DNA of 64,000 nt from Acidimicrobiia bacterium (GTDB lineage Bacteria; Actinomycetota; Acidimicrobiia; IMCC26256; PALSA-610). Numbering within the stretch: position 1 is the first letter of the stretch; each line of letters starts with the position of its first letter. The notes under the pieces are model-generated. The model saw only the letters and a program-made list of their open reading frames with translations. It searched no databases and had not been told where the DNA came from. A program made the translations under genes and the position numbers. The stretch is taken from positions 163,378-227,377 of the forward strand of contig JAOSJK010000001.1 in assembly GCA_027494135.1 (NCBI GenBank), in the 5' to 3' direction. Shown here piece after piece: positions 37,301 to 43,249 of the stretch.

Positions 37301-38170
37301 GGCTCTCCTGACATGTTTGTGGGTTAGTTCCGGCCGGGTAGGGCGGGCCGGTGACCGCCGAGGGCGAGCATGGCGAGGGCGATTAGGGCGGCGGGGTTCT
37401 TGAACCCGAAGGCGATGCGGGTGAGGAGCCGGATCTTGGTGTTGGTCGACTCGATGAGAGCGTTGGAGAGCTCGCTGTCGAGGGCTGCGTCGATCTCGGC
37501 GCGGTGACGCCGGATGGCTTGTTGAAGCTTCACGAACGCGGGGATCCGGCAGCGGCACGCCCAGGTGAGCCATCGGTCGAGCGCGTCCTTGCCGGCGTGA
37601 CCCTTGAGCTGGAACACGGTACGTAGACCTTCTTTGAGCAGGTAGGCGCGGTGCAGCCGTGGGTCGGTCTTGGCGATCCAGGCGAGTTTGGCGGCTTGGT
37701 GGTCGGTGAGGTTCTCGGGGTTCTTCCAGAGCGCGTAGCGGGACTGTTGCAAGGCGCGGGCCCGGTCGTGGCCTGGGCGGGGTGGAGCGTCACGACGGGG
37801 GCGGCCGCTTGGTCGGTGGCCTTCGCCGCGAGCAACGGCCCGGGCGTCGTTCCACGCGGCGCGGCGGACCTCGTCGAGGGCGTCGGTGGCCCACGCGACC
37901 ACGTGGAACGCGTCAGCGCACAGGATGGCGTTGGGGCAGTGGGTTCTGACCGCGTTGGCGATCCATGTCGCCGCGTCGGCGCTGACATGGGTGATCAACG
38001 CGCATCGCTCGGCGCCGACCAGCTCGAAGAACGTCGCGAGGGTGGCCTCGTCCCGGCCGACCGAGGCCCACACGAGCCGGCCCGTGTCATGATCGACGAC
38101 CACCGTCAGGTAGCGGTGCCCGCGCTTGTAGCTGATCTCCGAAGACGTCGGTGACGTATACAGCGGTGAG
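37301..38170 (-). mobile_element. ISL3-family IS remnant (5'-truncated), inserted ~15 nt after ssrA
   Basis: The terminal inverted repeat GGCTCTCCTGACATG begins at 37301. The transposase C-terminal ~270 aa are present. The upstream part is missing. Confidence 0.75.
37324..38170 (-). pseudogene. ISL3 family transposase, N-terminally truncated
   Basis: This is the C-terminal part of ORF 37324..39111: ISYKRGHRYLTVVVDHDTGRLVWASVGRD...CADAFHVVAWATDALDEVRR...NALIESTNTKIRLLTRIAFGFKNPAALIALAML. Confidence 0.8.
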
Positions 38171-38178
38171 ATCAAAGG
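38171..38178. repeat. 8-bp target-site duplication ATCAAAGG (left)
   Basis: It directly abuts the IRL GGCTCTTCGCGTTTGAGCGGGG. An identical octamer lies at 43242-43249. Confidence 0.8.
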
Positions 38179-38278
38179 GGCTCTTCGCGTTTGAGCGGGG
38201 TCGGGTAGGTCCGTAGGCGGTACAGGGGCTCTGCGAATCTGAGGGTGTCTTACGCCTTCGGATCCGGGGAGAGCCCCT

Positions 38279-39445
38279 GTGGAAGTTGACCCTACGCGCA
38301 TCTGCGAGCTGTTGGTAGGTCTGCCTGACGTGAACGTGCTCGGGGTGATCGACGAGTCGGGCGGCGTGTTGAGGGTCGTGATCGAGATCCGCGGTCCGCG
38401 TCCCGCGTGCGCACGGTGCGGGTGGCCGGCGCAGGTCAAGGACCGGCCGGTTGTCGAGCTCGTTGATCTGCCCTGCTTCGGTAGGTCTGTCCGGCTGGTG
38501 TGGCGCAAGCACCGTTGGGCGTGTGTCAACGGGTCGTGTCCGGTTCGGTCGTGGACAGGAGTGGACGTTCGGATAGCGGTGGCACGCTCCGCGATGACGG
38601 ATCGTGCGGGCCGGTGGGTGACCCGCCAGGTCGGTGAGCACGGCCGCACTGTGAACGAGATCGCCGGCGAGCTCGAGTGTGCCTGGCATACCGTCAACGA
38701 CGCGGTGAGGGCATACGGCGAGGCACTCGTCGATGACGACCCCGACCGGATCGGCGAGCCAACCGCACTCGGGTTGGATGAGACCCTGTTCGCACGGCTC
38801 GGCGAGTTCGGCCGGCAGCACTGGTCGACGTCGATCGTCGATGTACGCGCCGGCGTGCTGCTCGATGTCGTTCCGGGCCGCAGCGGCGCAGAACCGTGCC
38901 GGTGGCTCGCCACACGCAGTGATGCGTGGCTGGCGAACATCGCGTACGCGACGCTCGATCTGTCGGGGCCGTACAGGGCTGTGTTCGACACGATGACCCC
39001 CGACGCGATCCAGGTCGCAGATCCATTCCATGTCGTCAAGCTCGCGAACCAGAAGCTCGATGAGTGCCGCCGTCGAGTGCAGAACGAGACGTGCGGCCAT
39101 CGTTGCCGCAAGGACGACCCGCTCTACCGCTGCCGGCGGTTGTTGACCCGCGCCGATGAACGTCTCGACGAACACGGTCGCACGAAGCTGCTCGGGCTTC
39201 TCGACGCCGGTGACCCCCATGGCGAGGTGCGCACTGCGTGGCACGCGAAGGAGGTTGTACGAAGCATCTATGAGCATCACGATCCCGAGCTCGCAGGCGA
39301 GTTCGTCGACAGGCTCGGCCACGATCTCCAGGACCCGTCATGCCCGATTGAAGTCCGCTCACTTGGCCGGACCCTTCTGCGCTGGAAGGATCAGATCGCG
39401 GCGTGGCATCGCGCTCACGTGAGCAACGGGCCGACCGAAGCGGCG
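38279..39445 (+). pseudogene. ISL3 family transposase, N-terminal 389 codons (interrupted)
   Basis: ORF 38279..39568: ...CARCGWPAQVKDRPVVELVDLP...ADPFHVVKLANQKLDECRR...HVSNGPTEAA, after which unrelated sequence follows. Confidence 0.85.
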
Positions 39446-39631
39446 ATTATCAGGAGCGCTCGTCGGAGTGTCGTTGACGTCGTCGACGAGGCAGTTGAGG
39501 CCGTTGGGGAACGCGTTCTCTGGAGCGTGTCGTTGAGGTCCCCGATGTGGCGGGCGGCGTGGAGGTAGACATCGTCGTCCTTGGCCCGCACCTCGCTGGT
39601 CGACCAGCGGAGGTGACGGTGAGGGTGCAGC

Positions 39632-40705
39632 GTGGTGATGCCCGTGACGGGCGGCGAGTCGTGGACAGTGGTTGGTGACGACTGGATTCCTGTCGTGCCG
39701 GTCGAGCGCTATCTGGGGCATCTGGCCGGGATCGAACGGTCTCCGAACACGGTGCGCGCCTACGCCCACGGGTTGCGGTTGTGGTTCGAGTTCCTCGAGC
39801 GGCACGATCTCGCGTGGGACGCAGCGGGCATCGAGGATGTGTCTCGGTTCGTGGCGTGGCTGCGGGCGCCGGCGGACAACGTGATCGTGCTCGATGACAC
39901 CGCGGCGGTGCGGAGCGCGGCGACGGTGAACCGGCATCTGGCCGCCCTGTTCGGGTTCTATGACTTCCACGCCCGTTCTGGGGTGGGGTTGGCGGCGGAT
40001 CTGGTGGCGTGGCGGCGGGTGTCGCGGGGTTCCTACAAGCCGTTCTTGCATCACGTGTCGCAGGGCCGGCCGGTCGCTGCCCGGCCGGTGAGGTTACGTG
40101 TTGATCGCCGCCTGCCCGTGACGTTGAGCGTCGAGGAGATCGCTCAGATCTTGGCAGCGTGTGATCGTCTGCGGGACCGGTTCCTGTTCGCGTTGTTGGC
40201 CGAGACGGGGATGCGGATCGGTCAAGCCCCTCGGGTTGCGTCACAGCGACTTCGTGAGCCGCGAACGGACGGTGATGATCGTGCCGCGAGGCGACAACGC
40301 CAACGGCGCCCGAGCCAAGTGCACGTCGCCGGTGAGTGTGCCGGTGTCGGCGCCGCTGGTTCGGCTCTACAGCGACTACATGCACACCGAGTACGGCGCC
40401 CTCGATTCGGACTACGTGTTCGTCAACTTGTGGTCGGCACCGGTGGGTCGCCCGTTGCGCTATCAGGCAGTCGTCAAGCTCGTCGGCCGACTGCGGGCCC
40501 GCACGGGCATCGAGTTCAGCGCACACATGCTGCGCCATAGCCGAGCGACAGAGCTGATCCGTGGCGGTGTGGCGATCGAGATCGTCTCAAGTTGTTGACT
40601 CACCGGTCGGTGACCACGACCAGCGACGCTTACGTGCACCTCGACGTTGAGGATCTGCGCGCTGAACTGGTCCGAGCCGGCGCATGGGTGCCGGCCTCAT
40701 GTTGA
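39632..40705 (+). pseudogene. tyrosine recombinase (Tn554 TnpA-like), frame broken twice
   Basis: ORF 39632..40540 (...SPNTVRAYAHGLRLWFEFL...LLAETGMRIGQA), then ORF 40161..40598 (LGLRHSDF...FSAHMLRHSRATELIRGG), then a third frame (LLTHRSVTTTSDAYVH). Switches are near 40225 and 40590. Confidence 0.75.
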
Positions 40706-42652
40706 GCGTCGTCTCGGTTCCCGATCCCGACGGCGACCAGATGGGGGCGTTGTTGGTCGCGGCAGTCCGTCCCGAGTTCGCCGGCCACATCGTTCGGGTC
40801 GACGCCGACAACCCGGTGTTCGGACGGGGTCGCTGCGGCGTCGGCGGCTGCGAGCGGACGTCGTGGGCGCGCCAGCTGTGCGCGGCTCACCATCAACGCT
40901 GGACCAAACACGGCAAACCCGAGGTCGAACACTTCCGGGACACCACCGGCCCGATCGCCGTGCGCGCCGGTTCCGAGAGGGTCGACGCGTTCGATCTGTC
41001 CGCGCTCGACCAACGAGCGCGTCTGGAGGTCGGCTACGTCTTGCAGTGCCGCCATGACGAACGCGGCGTTCGGGTCCTGCCCTCGACTATCCGTCATCTC
41101 GCCGCCCTCTACGTTGACAGCGGCGCCCGGTCGCTGCTCGACCGGCCGGTCGAGCCATGGCTCGACGCCGTGCGAGCCAAACGCTGGAAGGACCCGACCC
41201 GCACGGTCGCGCTCGTCCGCTACGCCCATCAGCGTCTCACTGACTTGGGCGGCATCGATGTCGAAGCCGAATACGCCAGCGACATCTGGGTGGCTGCCCG
41301 CCTCGGGATCCACGTGACGCGTTCAGCGACCCAGACCCGCTTCGACACCATCGCTCAGCCGTGGCTGCGCACCGCTGTCAAACGATGGGCTCGGCTGCGG
41401 CTCGGATCCGGCAAGACGTTCGGCACCGTGCACGTCGACGCCCGAGCGATGCTGTGGTTCAGCCGGTTCCTCGCCGGACGTGACCCCGACGCCACCGATG
41501 AGCGTGCGATCACCCGCGACGCGCTCGAGGCCTACCTCGTCTGGATCACCGCTTCCCACCTGGCAGCGCACACCTCGAGCACCTACATCACCTGCCTACG
41601 AGGTTTCCTCGACACGAGCCGTCGCCACCGGTGGCTGCCCGCACTGTCATCAACAGCCGCTCTCTACCACGACGACCTGCCGAGCCGTCCCCGGCCGCTG
41701 CCGCGTTTCATCTCCGAGTTCGTGATGGGCCAGCTCGAAGACCCCGATCGCCTCGCCGTCCTACCCGACGCCACCACCCGAGCGCTGATCGTCGTGATCA
41801 TGGAGACCGGGCTGCGCGCCAACGACGCCTGCGCGTTGCCGTTCAACCCGATCATCGACGACTCAGCCGGATGGCCGTGTCTGCGCTACTTCAACGCCAA
41901 GATGGCCGCCGAACAACTCGTTCCCCTCAGCGCCACCGCCGCCGACGCGATCCGCGCCCAGCAAGCAGACCTCCGCCGACGTTGGCCCGCCGGACCGCCG
42001 GTGCTGTTCCCCGCTCCGCACTCCAACCCCGACGGGACACACCCGTTCAGCTACGCGACGCTGCGGGCCCGTCTCGCCCGCTGGCAAGACGACATCGACG
42101 TGCACGACGAGACCGGCCAGCACGTGCGCGTCACCGCTCACCAGTTCCGTCACACGCTCGGCACACGGTTGATCAACCAGGGCGTCCCCCAACACGTCAT
42201 CCAACGCCTCCTCGGACACGCCTCCCCGCAGATGACCGCCCGCTACGCCACCTTGCACGACACCACCGTCCGCCAAGCCTTCGACGAGTACTGCCGCCAA
42301 CGCGTCAACCTCGCCGGCGACCGCATCGTCTACGACCCCGCCGGTATCACCGCCGACGCCGAGTGGACCAAGCACAACATGACCAGAGTGCAGGCCAGCC
42401 TGCCCAACGGCTACTGCGGGCGACCACCACAACAGAACTGCCCGCACCCCCAACGCCTGCCTCACCTGCCCCGACTTCCAGACCACCCCGGCGTTCCTCG
42501 ACGTCCACCGCCACCAACGCGATGAGACCCGGATCCTGATCGCCACCGCCGAAGCCGACGGCCAGTTCCGGCTCGCCGCGAACCACCGCCAGGTCCACGA
42601 CAACCTCGATCAACTCATCGACGCCCTCGATGCCATCGGAGACTCCCCATGA
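40684..42652 (+). pseudogene. large tyrosine recombinase (Tn554 TnpB-like), frame broken once
   Basis: ORF 40684..42525: ...METGLRANDA...HQFRHTLGTRLINQGVPQHVIQRLLGHASPQMTARYATL. The C-terminal part, NACLTCPDFQTTPAFLDVH...DALDAIGDSP*, is in another frame. The switch is at the C5 run 42447-42451. Confidence 0.8.
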
Positions 42653-43023
42653 GCACCACCGAGAACACCGCCCTCGCCGTCGCCACCGAGCGGCGCGTTC
42701 AAGACACCCGGCTACGCGCCATCGGCGCGATCCGACAGCTCGACACCGCCGGCGAGACCATCACGTTCGCCAGCGTCTCCCAACGATCAGGAGTGTCACG
42801 ATCATGGCTCTACCGCCAACCCGACCTACGCGCCGAGATCAACCGCCTGCGAGCCACCCCAGCCCCGACAGTCCCTTCAGCCCAGCGAGCCTCCACCGAC
42901 TCACAGCACCGACGCCTCGAGGCCACCCTCGACGAGATCCAACGCCTCAAGGCCGAGAACCAACAACTCCGGGAACTGCTCGCCCAGCGCCTCGGACAAC
43001 AACGCGTCGACGGGCCAAACTGA
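42649..43023 (+). CDS. small TnpC-like protein (HTH plus coiled coil)
   Basis: 124 aa. ITFASVSQRSGVSRSWLYRQPDLRAEI...LDEIQRLKAENQQLRELL. Its ATG overlaps the upstream stop. Confidence 0.65.
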   Translation: MSTTENTALAVATERRVQDTRLRAIGAIRQLDTAGETITFASVSQRSGVSRSWLYRQPDLRAEINRLRATPAPTVPSAQRASTDSQHRRLEATLDEIQRLKAENQQLRELLAQRLGQQRVDGPN

Positions 43024-43099
43024 CCTCGTCGGCAACATGTCCACGACGTGCAGGCCCTGGCGAACAAGGCATTCCCTGTCCGCGCTCCAGATAACGGCG

Positions 43100-43228
43100 A
43101 ACAACCTCATCAAGCGGATCAAGCGCGTCGCGTTCGGCTTCACGAACTTCCGCAACTACCGCGTCCGGGTCCTGCTCTACGCCGGCAAGCCGAACTGGGA
43201 CCTACTCGCCAGCGTCACACCCCGCTGA
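43100..43228 (+). pseudogene. ISL3 family transposase, C-terminal fragment
   Basis: NNLIKRIKRVAFGFTNFRNYRVRVLLYAGKPNWDLL, in the same codon phase as the 38279 part. Confidence 0.85.
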
Positions 43229-43241
43229 AACGCGAAGAACC

Positions 43242-43249
43242 ATCAAAGG
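43242..43249. repeat. 8-bp target-site duplication ATCAAAGG (right)
   Basis: It directly follows the IRR. Confidence 0.8.

Follow-up and report, generated by a model that had tools for sequence, protein, structure and literature searches.

What kind of DNA can split the transposase gene of an insertion sequence while leaving the ends of that insertion sequence in place, and is the site that it occupies more than an accident? The question is raised by a window of 64,000 nucleotides from an Acidimicrobiia bacterium (positions 163,378 to 227,377 of contig JAOSJK010000001.1, or C1:163378-227377 in the contig numbering used here), which was taken from a metagenome-assembled genome (MAG) of 3.93 Mb in 80 contigs that is 77.5% complete. 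Within this window an insert of 3654 bp (39446-43099) carrying the genes tnpA, tnpB and tnpC interrupts a transposase gene of the ISL3 family. Comparison of its proteins and junctions with those of its relatives makes it very probable that the insert is a minimal, cargo-free member of an actinobacterial branch of the Tn554 family that is site-specific for ISL3.

Structure of the insert and its host element

The insert is made up of a 3649-bp body and one extra 5-nt core. Together with its host element it comprises the following features.

38179-43241, plus strand, host ISL3 insertion sequence with inverted repeats and a flanking 8-bp duplication
38279-39445, plus strand, 5' part of the ISL3 transposase gene, residues 1-389, last residues ...SNGPTEAA
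39441-39445, plus strand, left core CGGCG, native to the target, the final 5 nt of the ISL3 5' part
39446-43094, plus strand, body of the Tn554-like element, 3649 bp
39468-39536, plus strand, left subterminal repeats, GTGTCGTTGA twice plus a second terminal arm
39613-40705, plus strand, tnpA, tyrosine recombinase, broken in the window, 364 amino acids (aa) in a second copy on contig C12
40684-42652, plus strand, tnpB, long tyrosine recombinase, 655 aa in the C12 copy, frameshifted at 42447 in the window
42649-43023, plus strand, tnpC, 124 aa, Pfam DUF6262, start overlapping the tnpB stop (ATGA)
43027-43048, plus strand, imperfect palindrome CGTCGGCAACATGTCCACGACG, directly after tnpC, present in the related elements aligned
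43095-43099, plus strand, right core (putative coupling sequence) CGGCG, extra copy brought by the element
43100-43228, plus strand, 3' part of the ISL3 transposase gene, starting NNLIKRIKRVAFGF... and running to the stop codon

The host element has the DDE_Tnp_ISL3 transposase, the terminal inverted repeats and the 8-bp duplication by which the ISL3 family is recognised. Its inverted repeats, GGCTCTTCGCGTTTGAGCGG (38179-38198) and GGTTCTTCGCGTTTCAGCGG (43222-43241, reverse complement), match at 18 of 20 positions, and the duplication ATCAAAGG is found on either side of it at 38171-38178 and 43242-43249. Rejoining the two halves of the gene gives a single 431-aa protein (PF01610, E 3.9e-50; domain residues 165-413) that the insertion breaks inside the DDE domain, at residue 389. 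The original prediction, made from the letters of the window, had the ISL3 reading frame split after ...NGPTEAA by exactly 3654 bp in a host that retains both repeats and its duplication; this proved correct, the frame stopping at 39445 and resuming at 43100 (NNLIKR...). Judged from the structure of the gene, the insertion inactivates the ISL3 element.

Two further points of that prediction, a pentamer CGGCG at both junctions and a repeated motif near the left end, were likewise found as described. The pentamer, at 39441-39445 and 43095-43099, is best read as a crossover or coupling sequence rather than a target duplication. The ends of the element form an imperfect inverted repeat of ATTATCAGGAGCGC (39446-39459) and GCGCTCCAGATAA (43082-43094), the terminal sequences being ATTMTCWGGAGC... 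on the left and ...GCTCCAGATAA on the right. The motif GTGTCGTTGA is located at 39468-39477 and 39527-39536, within a 25-nt direct repeat that is 80% identical, and the terminal arm recurs as TTCTCTGGAGCG at 39516-39527, roughly 60-70 bp inside the left end. These left subterminal repeats recur across the related elements aligned and are putative accessory recombinase-binding sites. The palindrome after tnpC, which is perfect in the Euzebya relative, is possibly a binding site or a terminator. No cargo is present, as had been predicted: the three genes fill the 3649 bp.

An open reading frame that starts at the ATG of the right-end palindrome and extends into the 3' part of the ISL3 gene was considered as a conserved gene, being in frame in the window and in the related loci L012, L018 and L021. 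It was rejected on account of a stop codon in L026, L028, L035 and L037, which leaves the DNA palindrome as the conserved feature.

Relationship to the Tn554 family

The proteins were measured against those of Tn558, the fexA carrier of the Tn554 family on Staphylococcus arlettae pSN65, which was reached by tblastn of plasmids. Identity to the Tn558 proteins was 38% over 354 aa for TnpA (E 1e-85), 30% over 463 aa for TnpB (E 1e-67) and 33% over 109 aa for TnpC (E 9e-16), and the gene order tnpA-tnpB-tnpC is the same. Pfam assigns Phage_int_SAM_1 and Phage_integrase to TnpA, Phage_integrase to the C-terminal half of TnpB and DUF6262 to TnpC; the Tn558 TnpC is named 'DUF6262 family protein' by NCBI. 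The catalytic R, H-x-x-R, H/W and Y motifs of both recombinases are visible in the pairwise alignments with Tn558. The Tn554-like architecture that had been suggested for the three genes was thereby confirmed; the suggested sizes of about 355, about 655 and 124 codons hold for the intact copy on C12 (364, 655 and 124 aa, with TnpA at 355 aa from an inner start, as compared to 361, 637 and 121 aa in Tn558) but, as regards tnpA and tnpB, not for the window, where indels break both frames. In the C12 copy tnpA and tnpB overlap by 22 nt, and the tnpB stop and tnpC start overlap in ATGA.

TnpB is composed of an N-terminal CCCH finger, a helical extension, core-binding and catalytic domains and a C-terminal CPHPNACLTC motif. 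In 48 homologues the finger (C-x4-C-x9-C-x2-H; C46, C51, C61 and H64), the C-terminal motif (C-x-H-x3-C-x2-C) and residues R373, H481, R484, H507 and Y516 are invariant. Its first ~195 residues, the finger included, do not align with Tn558 TnpB. In a Foldseek search with the AlphaFold model (mean pLDDT 78.9) the C-terminal 300-360 residues aligned with XerH, IntI, Tn1549 Int, lambda Int and Cre; the N-terminal extension found no match, all hits being whole tyrosine recombinases that covered this C-terminal part.

The prediction would have been undermined had the two recombinases clustered with ordinary Xer proteins or phage integrases. In a maximum-likelihood tree they fell with Tn554-type proteins instead: the TnpB catalytic regions of the element, an Aldehydirespiratoraceae relative, the plasmid pAO1 element, Mycobacterium dioxanotrophicus and Tn558 formed one clade with 100/100 support, and TnpA grouped with Tn554-type TnpA, separately from nine ordinary tyrosine recombinases encoded elsewhere in its genome. 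Tyrosine recombinases of that genome scored at most 44 bits against TnpA and gave no match to TnpB. The best NCBIfam Xer models reached 99-113 bits, as compared to cut-offs of 220-335, which does not support assignment to XerC or XerD, and Pfam and NCBIfam otherwise returned generic 'phage integrase' or Xer-like matches below family cut-offs.

In the broad sense the insert is therefore placed in the Tn554 family by co-directional tnpA-tnpB-tnpC genes encoding two tyrosine recombinases, by homology of all three proteins, and by site- and orientation-specific insertion that leaves no true target duplication and puts left-flank nucleotides at the new right junction. It falls outside the family in the strict sense of TnCentral, where Tn554 elements are restricted to Firmicutes, insert in radC and form circles, in that its hosts are Actinomycetota (Acidimicrobiia, Euzebya, Rhodococcus), its target is ISL3 and it has no passenger genes.

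TnpB homologues make up at least 640 protein clusters, the top 120 of which are 58-95% identical. In 60 genomes of close taxonomic relatives only homologues of 28-33% identity were found, the close relatives of the element coming from other Acidimicrobiia MAGs. Many of the public contigs carrying TnpB homologues in clusters P0008-P0127 are 3.6-3.9 kb long (e.g. 3654, 3662 and 3692 bp), which is the length of one element, because the element is multi-copy and short-read assemblers break at its ends.

Target specificity

Every junction that could be reached was read, 36 left and 39 right, at 27 genome loci in Acidimicrobiia-type MAGs, 23 metagenome loci, Rhodococcus sp. IEGM 1307 and a Euzebya MAG. 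All 75 lay in an ISL3-type transposase gene at the same codon of the motif N-x-x-x-E-x-x/N (the slash marks the insertion point), and the orientation was in every case the direction of the transposase gene. More than 20 different ISL3 sequences were hit at this codon, among them SNGPTEAA/NNLIKRIKR, SNGPTEAV/NLLIEKIRR, SNGPTEGL/NLCVKKVKR, SNGRIEGT/NNLLQVLRR, TNAATEAA/NNLAKRVKR, SNGLTESV/NTKLRLLTR, SNGLIEGI/NSKIRLINA and SNGVCEAV/NGLIKRIKR. The TnpB proteins of Euzebya and of the cultured Rhodococcus sp. IEGM 1307 are only about 60% identical, yet their elements occupy the same ISL3 site, the left core of the Rhodococcus copy being GTATC.

At the DNA level the 21 unique left and 23 unique right flanks, counted before the Rhodococcus and Euzebya loci were added, gave the consensus AAYGSNNNNAYYGARG-[N5]-AAC. 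Positions -16 to -13 (AAC-G), -4/-3 (GA) and +1 to +3 (AAC) are invariant, and G stands at -1 in 20 of the 21 left flanks. In DDE transposases the catalytic E is usually marked by a lysine seven residues further on. In the window ISL3 the glutamate of the motif is E387, which we presume to be the catalytic one, and the lysine is K394; if this assignment is correct, the gene is cut two codons after the catalytic residue. On the strength of these junctions the ISL3 site is taken to be the specific target of the family and not an accident. As the relatives always lie at the same conserved ISL3 codons, the element is a transposon specialised in parasitising another transposon.

Empty sites and exchange of cores

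Uninterrupted target genes were examined in two genomes. In the MFD04944 MAG three uninterrupted ISL3 copies read GAAG-CGGTC-AACCTG with a single core; the same ISL3 type is occupied there at least 11 times and the empty copies are almost identical to the occupied ones over 1288 bp. The genome of the window holds no empty copy of its own ISL3. It does hold five uninterrupted ISL3 relatives of 62-66% protein identity (C1:610359-611663, C1:802126-803430, C14:13201-14451, C14:14559-15863 and C21:4031-5335), which are colinear and read ACCGAGG-CGATC/CGATG-AACAAC, again with a single core, as the presumed junction requires. Since the empty sites have one core, an occupied site equals the target plus the 3649-bp body plus one extra 5-nt core. 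The empty-site core CGATC reappears as a foreign right core in L034, L037 and L065, which are from other samples.

Left and right cores are equal in 16 of the 25 copies for which both ends were read, the window included, and differ in L015, L017, L018, L019, L020, L023, L026, L035 and L071. In five of these (L015, L017, L019, L023 and L026) the left core is native to the ISL3 lineage in which the copy sits and the right core is one native to a different lineage, found in that genome or in a related one. L015 (GCCTC / CGGTC) and L017 (CGGTC / GCCTC) are reciprocal in one genome, the right core CCGCC of L023 and L019 comes from TEAA-type ISL3s, and that of L026, GCACC, is the native core of the NGRIEGT type. 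For each foreign core there is an ISL3 whose E-x-x codons it fits (GCG GCG, GCG GTC, GGC CTC, GGC ACC, GCA GCC, GCG ATC and so on). Read in this way, the carry-over of cores shows real movement between different ISL3 genes and argues strongly against one ancient insertion.

In the region of L019 and L020 (OZ242187.1, ~125-153 kb) a stretch of about 20 kb contains three copies or ends. One right junction is present also as an inverted duplicate, in which the ISL3 flank ends after 18 bp, and one copy has left and right flanks from different ISL3 lineages. This suggests that the region was rearranged by recombination between copies of the element.

The two copies in the genome

Whole-genome BLAST, which followed up the suggestion that the 3.65-kb unit be looked for elsewhere, located one other copy at C12:951604-955257, where it occupies the identical position in another copy of this ISL3; no further copies or solo ends were found in the genome. 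The flanks of the C12 copy outside ISL3 are unrelated to those in the window. Its three genes are intact, whereas the window copy differs from it by two substitutions (the window having A at 40062 and G at 42693) and five indels. Four of the indels break a frame: 2 nt are deleted after 39629, an additional C stands at 40227 and another at 42447, and one base is lost after 40587. The fifth indel is at 39561. As a result the window tnpA is reduced to reading frames of 302 and 145 aa in two frames, and tnpB to 613 aa with a wrong tail and the loss of the last ~60 residues. The indels may be real decay or a polishing error in a repeat. Owing to the frameshifts in tnpA and tnpB the window copy is probably inactive by itself, and the intact C12 copy could act in trans as a source of recombinases for it.

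The two ISL3 copies differ at 16 of 1410 positions and the two elements at 2 of 3654 (Fisher p = 1e-7). This difference argues that two ISL3 copies which had already diverged were invaded separately.

The C12 composite of ISL3 and element (L001 5338-10400 = C12:950337-955399) lacks a matching 8-bp duplication, its left flank reading ...CGTTATCG and its right flank GTGAAACG...; the flanks may have been exchanged by recombination between ISL3 copies.

Proposed route of transposition

A route is proposed on the basis of the homology, the junction census, the empty sites and the carried-over cores, from which we infer a circular intermediate, a reader of the target and roles for the subterminal repeats and TnpC. 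TnpA and TnpB would bind the 11-bp inverted arms (TTATCWGGAGC) at both ends and join the ends into a circle, whose junction of arm, 5- or 6-nt spacer and arm would constitute a dif- or lox-like core site. The expected end-to-end junction is ...GCTCCAGATAA-NNNNN-ATTATCTGGAGC..., or, with 11-bp arms around a 6-nt spacer, GCTCCAGATAA-NNNNNA-TTATCWGGAGC, the spacer being copied from the left flank of the donor site. The circle would then recombine with an ISL3 gene through staggered cuts 5-6 nt apart, for which homology in the spacer would not be needed, so that the target's own 5 nt would end up at the left junction and the carried 5 nt at the right. As the target arms barely resemble the element arms, we suspect that the N-terminal extension of TnpB with its CCCH finger reads the target. 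A relative on pAO1 that has three fingers and another target is in line with this.

A more far-reaching reading, which we hold tentatively and consider somewhat doubtful as a whole, makes this clade an obligate hyperparasite of ISL3. It would recognise the DNA of the catalytic-glutamate motif, which is hard for ISL3 to change; its insertion would knock out the transposase; and it would spread from cell to cell on ISL3 copies mobilised in trans by intact sisters. Since the 5-nt core is exchanged at every move in this scheme, departure could rewrite the two codons beside the catalytic glutamate. Sister clades would target other recombinase genes, the number and sequence of the TnpB fingers setting the target.

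Several points weigh against a mobile, ISL3-specific element of this kind. The circle, excision and transposition are all predictions from sequence. Target arms and element arms match at 3-4 of 11 positions when compared by eye, and recognition of attB is thus unexplained. Frame-breaking indels are present in both recombinase genes of the window copy, which is possibly a dead relic. Gene conversion could account for the low divergence between the two elements. Five ISL3 targets that fit the consensus lie unoccupied in the same genome, where activity may be low or absent. Finally, the asymmetry of native left and foreign right cores rests on five secure cases (two-sided p ~0.06 against 50:50).

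Alternative explanations

The explanation that competes most seriously concerns the window copy and leaves the family as described: the copy would be a dead, decaying relic whose indels are real and which is immobile even with help. We give this close to an even chance. The four frame-breaking indels relative to C12 spread over both recombinase genes, the surroundings that form a graveyard of insertion sequences and the five suitable empty ISL3 targets left unoccupied all speak for it. Against this, polishing can introduce indels into a repeat that occurs twice in a MAG, and both ends, both cores and the subterminal repeats show no difference from those on C12, where the copy is intact, so that the window copy should still be a substrate in trans. 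The constant position could instead be a matter of common descent, a single ancient insertion having given rise to a composite of ISL3 and element that then spread by ISL3 transposition with transposase supplied in trans. The nearly identical ISL3s of one type in MFD04944, at least 11 occupied and 3 empty at different loci, are what such amplification would be expected to produce. However, near-identical elements are found in very different ISL3 lineages of one genome (the L012 versus the L015 type, and the L021/L022 versus the L023 type), foreign right cores record moves between lineages, and in the genome of the window divergence is about 20 times greater between the ISL3 halves than between the elements. 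A comparison of ISL3 halves in MFD04944 (6 occupied and 3 empty copies) gave only 3 variable sites and a haplotype common to occupied copies and empty sisters; this argues no more than weakly against a single composite clone. Descent from one insertion is accordingly improbable as an account of the shared position, although the element may additionally hitch-hike on ISL3.

Two explanations would give the three genes another identity. If they were passengers in a composite transposon built on ISL3, or an integrase module left behind by a prophage or integrative island, the generic 'phage integrase' and Xer-like Pfam and NCBIfam matches below cut-offs would be accounted for; the unit, however, splits the ISL3 DDE domain at residue 389 of 431, has inverted ends of its own and a constant length (about 3.65 kb) at dozens of sites, carries nothing except tnpA, tnpB and tnpC, and encodes proteins that match Tn558 far better than any Xer protein or integrase. 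This origin is very improbable. Hardly any likelihood at all is left to a recombinase-in-trio (RIT) or gamma-mobile-trio (Gmt) type of element, the first of which the original prediction had also named for comparison. Three co-directional, overlapping genes of which two encode tyrosine recombinases would suit it, as would very weak NCBIfam matches of TnpA to GmtY (E 0.0035) and of TnpB to GmtY (1.3e-5) and GmtZ (0.006), but these Gmt scores are far under the cut-offs. RIT elements are defined by three adjacent recombinases, RitA, RitB and RitC (PMC3414803, PMC8138268), whereas the third protein here is a 124-aa DUF6262 protein with no recombinase domain. It is this gene architecture that decides the matter, the tree having been built from Tn554-type proteins and recombinases of the genome. 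The reading preferred for the insert therefore remains that of a cargo-free Tn554-type element with ISL3 as its target.

Comparison with known elements

As in Tn554, where 5-6 nt of the donor left flank appear at the right junction of the new site (PMC10214605), the left flank is carried over in the junctions described here; the carried stretch is readable as 5 nt, or as 6 when an invariant A is counted. The differences lie in the target, which is radC/att554 for Tn554 and the ISL3 transposase gene here, and in size, the Tn554-family elements of Firmicutes (Tn554, Tn558, Tn559 and Tn6674) being 6-7 kb with passenger genes as compared to 3.65 kb with none. The transposition route of Tn554 itself is still described as unresolved (PMC10214605), and the natural record of core carry-over constrains it with respect to the overlap of 5-6 nt, the dispensability of homology and the left-flank origin of the core.

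Tn554-related tnpA/tnpB(/tnpC) elements were recognised in Actinobacteria by Van Houdt et al. (2012), for instance on pAO1 of Paenarthrobacter nicotinovorans; their targets were left undefined and were guessed to be repeated attB sites (PMC3414803). Those elements resemble the present ones in combining a long and an ordinary tyrosine recombinase with a TnpC homologue and in being cargo-free, multi-copy and actinobacterial. The pAO1 copy, with a TnpB that is 41% identical, shares the end architecture core-ATTATCTGGGGC ... CTCAAGATAA-core-A. In contrast, it interrupts a tyrosine-recombinase gene (...AAFVQ on one side, TQVGHSYASTT on the other, TGCAG at each junction), and its TnpB has three N-terminal CCCH-like fingers as compared to one in the clade studied here. 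By these comparisons the clade is a distinct ISL3-specific branch beside the pAO1-type elements. Whereas the targets of the actinobacterial relatives have been undefined since 2012 (PMC3414803), a precise one with ~14 informative bases is now available, along with dozens of natural insertion events at it.

SE elements are similar in their target specificity and in the 6-bp footprint from the left flank at the new right junction, and one SE insertion into an IS3 gene has been reported (PMC10214605). Unlike the present element they occur only in Gammaproteobacteria, carry cargo and have tfp as a fourth core gene, and their genes have no blast-level similarity to those of GInt elements (PMC10214605). 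SE and GInt were set apart by their description and gene content: both have four core genes with a catalytically dead Tfp or GinC between the recombinases, whereas three genes are present here and tnpA and tnpB overlap by 22 nt.

Insertion into another mobile element is known from IS4321 and IS5075 (IS110/IS1111 family), which insert in the inverted repeats of Tn21-type transposons. There, too, a conserved sequence of another mobile element serves as the specific target and provides a harmless, widespread landing site. The enzymes differ, being a DEDD transposase in that case and two tyrosine recombinases in this one, and terminal repeats are used instead of coding sequence for a catalytic motif.

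In the literature searchable here no paper was found on the targeting of ISL3 by such elements. What is new is the ISL3 transposase target for Tn554-type machinery, in cargo-free form and in actinobacterial hosts; the machinery as such is already known. The elements provide a clear case of one transposon specialised on the catalytic-motif codons of another, with a likeness to homing elements that choose sites which the host cannot mutate, and they may limit the expansion of ISL3 in Actinomycetota. The cultured host Rhodococcus sp. IEGM 1307 carries an apparently intact copy that is usable for experiments. For genome annotation it is of consequence that pipelines label these genes 'integrase' and that assemblies break at the elements.

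Further observations

Upstream of the host ISL3, the minus strand of the window holds at 37324-38170 part of an ISL3-type transposase gene that is older and distantly related (...SNALIESTNTKIRLLTRIAFGF...), at the truncated end of which the ISL3 landed. The N-x-x-x-E-x-x-N site of this fragment is intact and carries no insert. Truncation of the older element preceded the arrival of the ISL3, because the DNA from 43250 onward is not its missing N-terminal part.

Among the other loci, the elements at L013 (1249-8413), L029 (1166-11924) and L031 (2505 onward) are at least 7 kb long or have a split tnpB, having been hit by further insertions, and so represent a third level of nesting. In L021 (8546-8990) the tnpC frame is open for at least 140 translated codons, its stop apparently being, by eye, the TAA in the terminal GATAA. 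In L018 (6467-6520) a 9-bp unit, GTCAAGCGG, is repeated in about five tandem copies just 3' of the insertion site and reads KRVKRVKRVKR.

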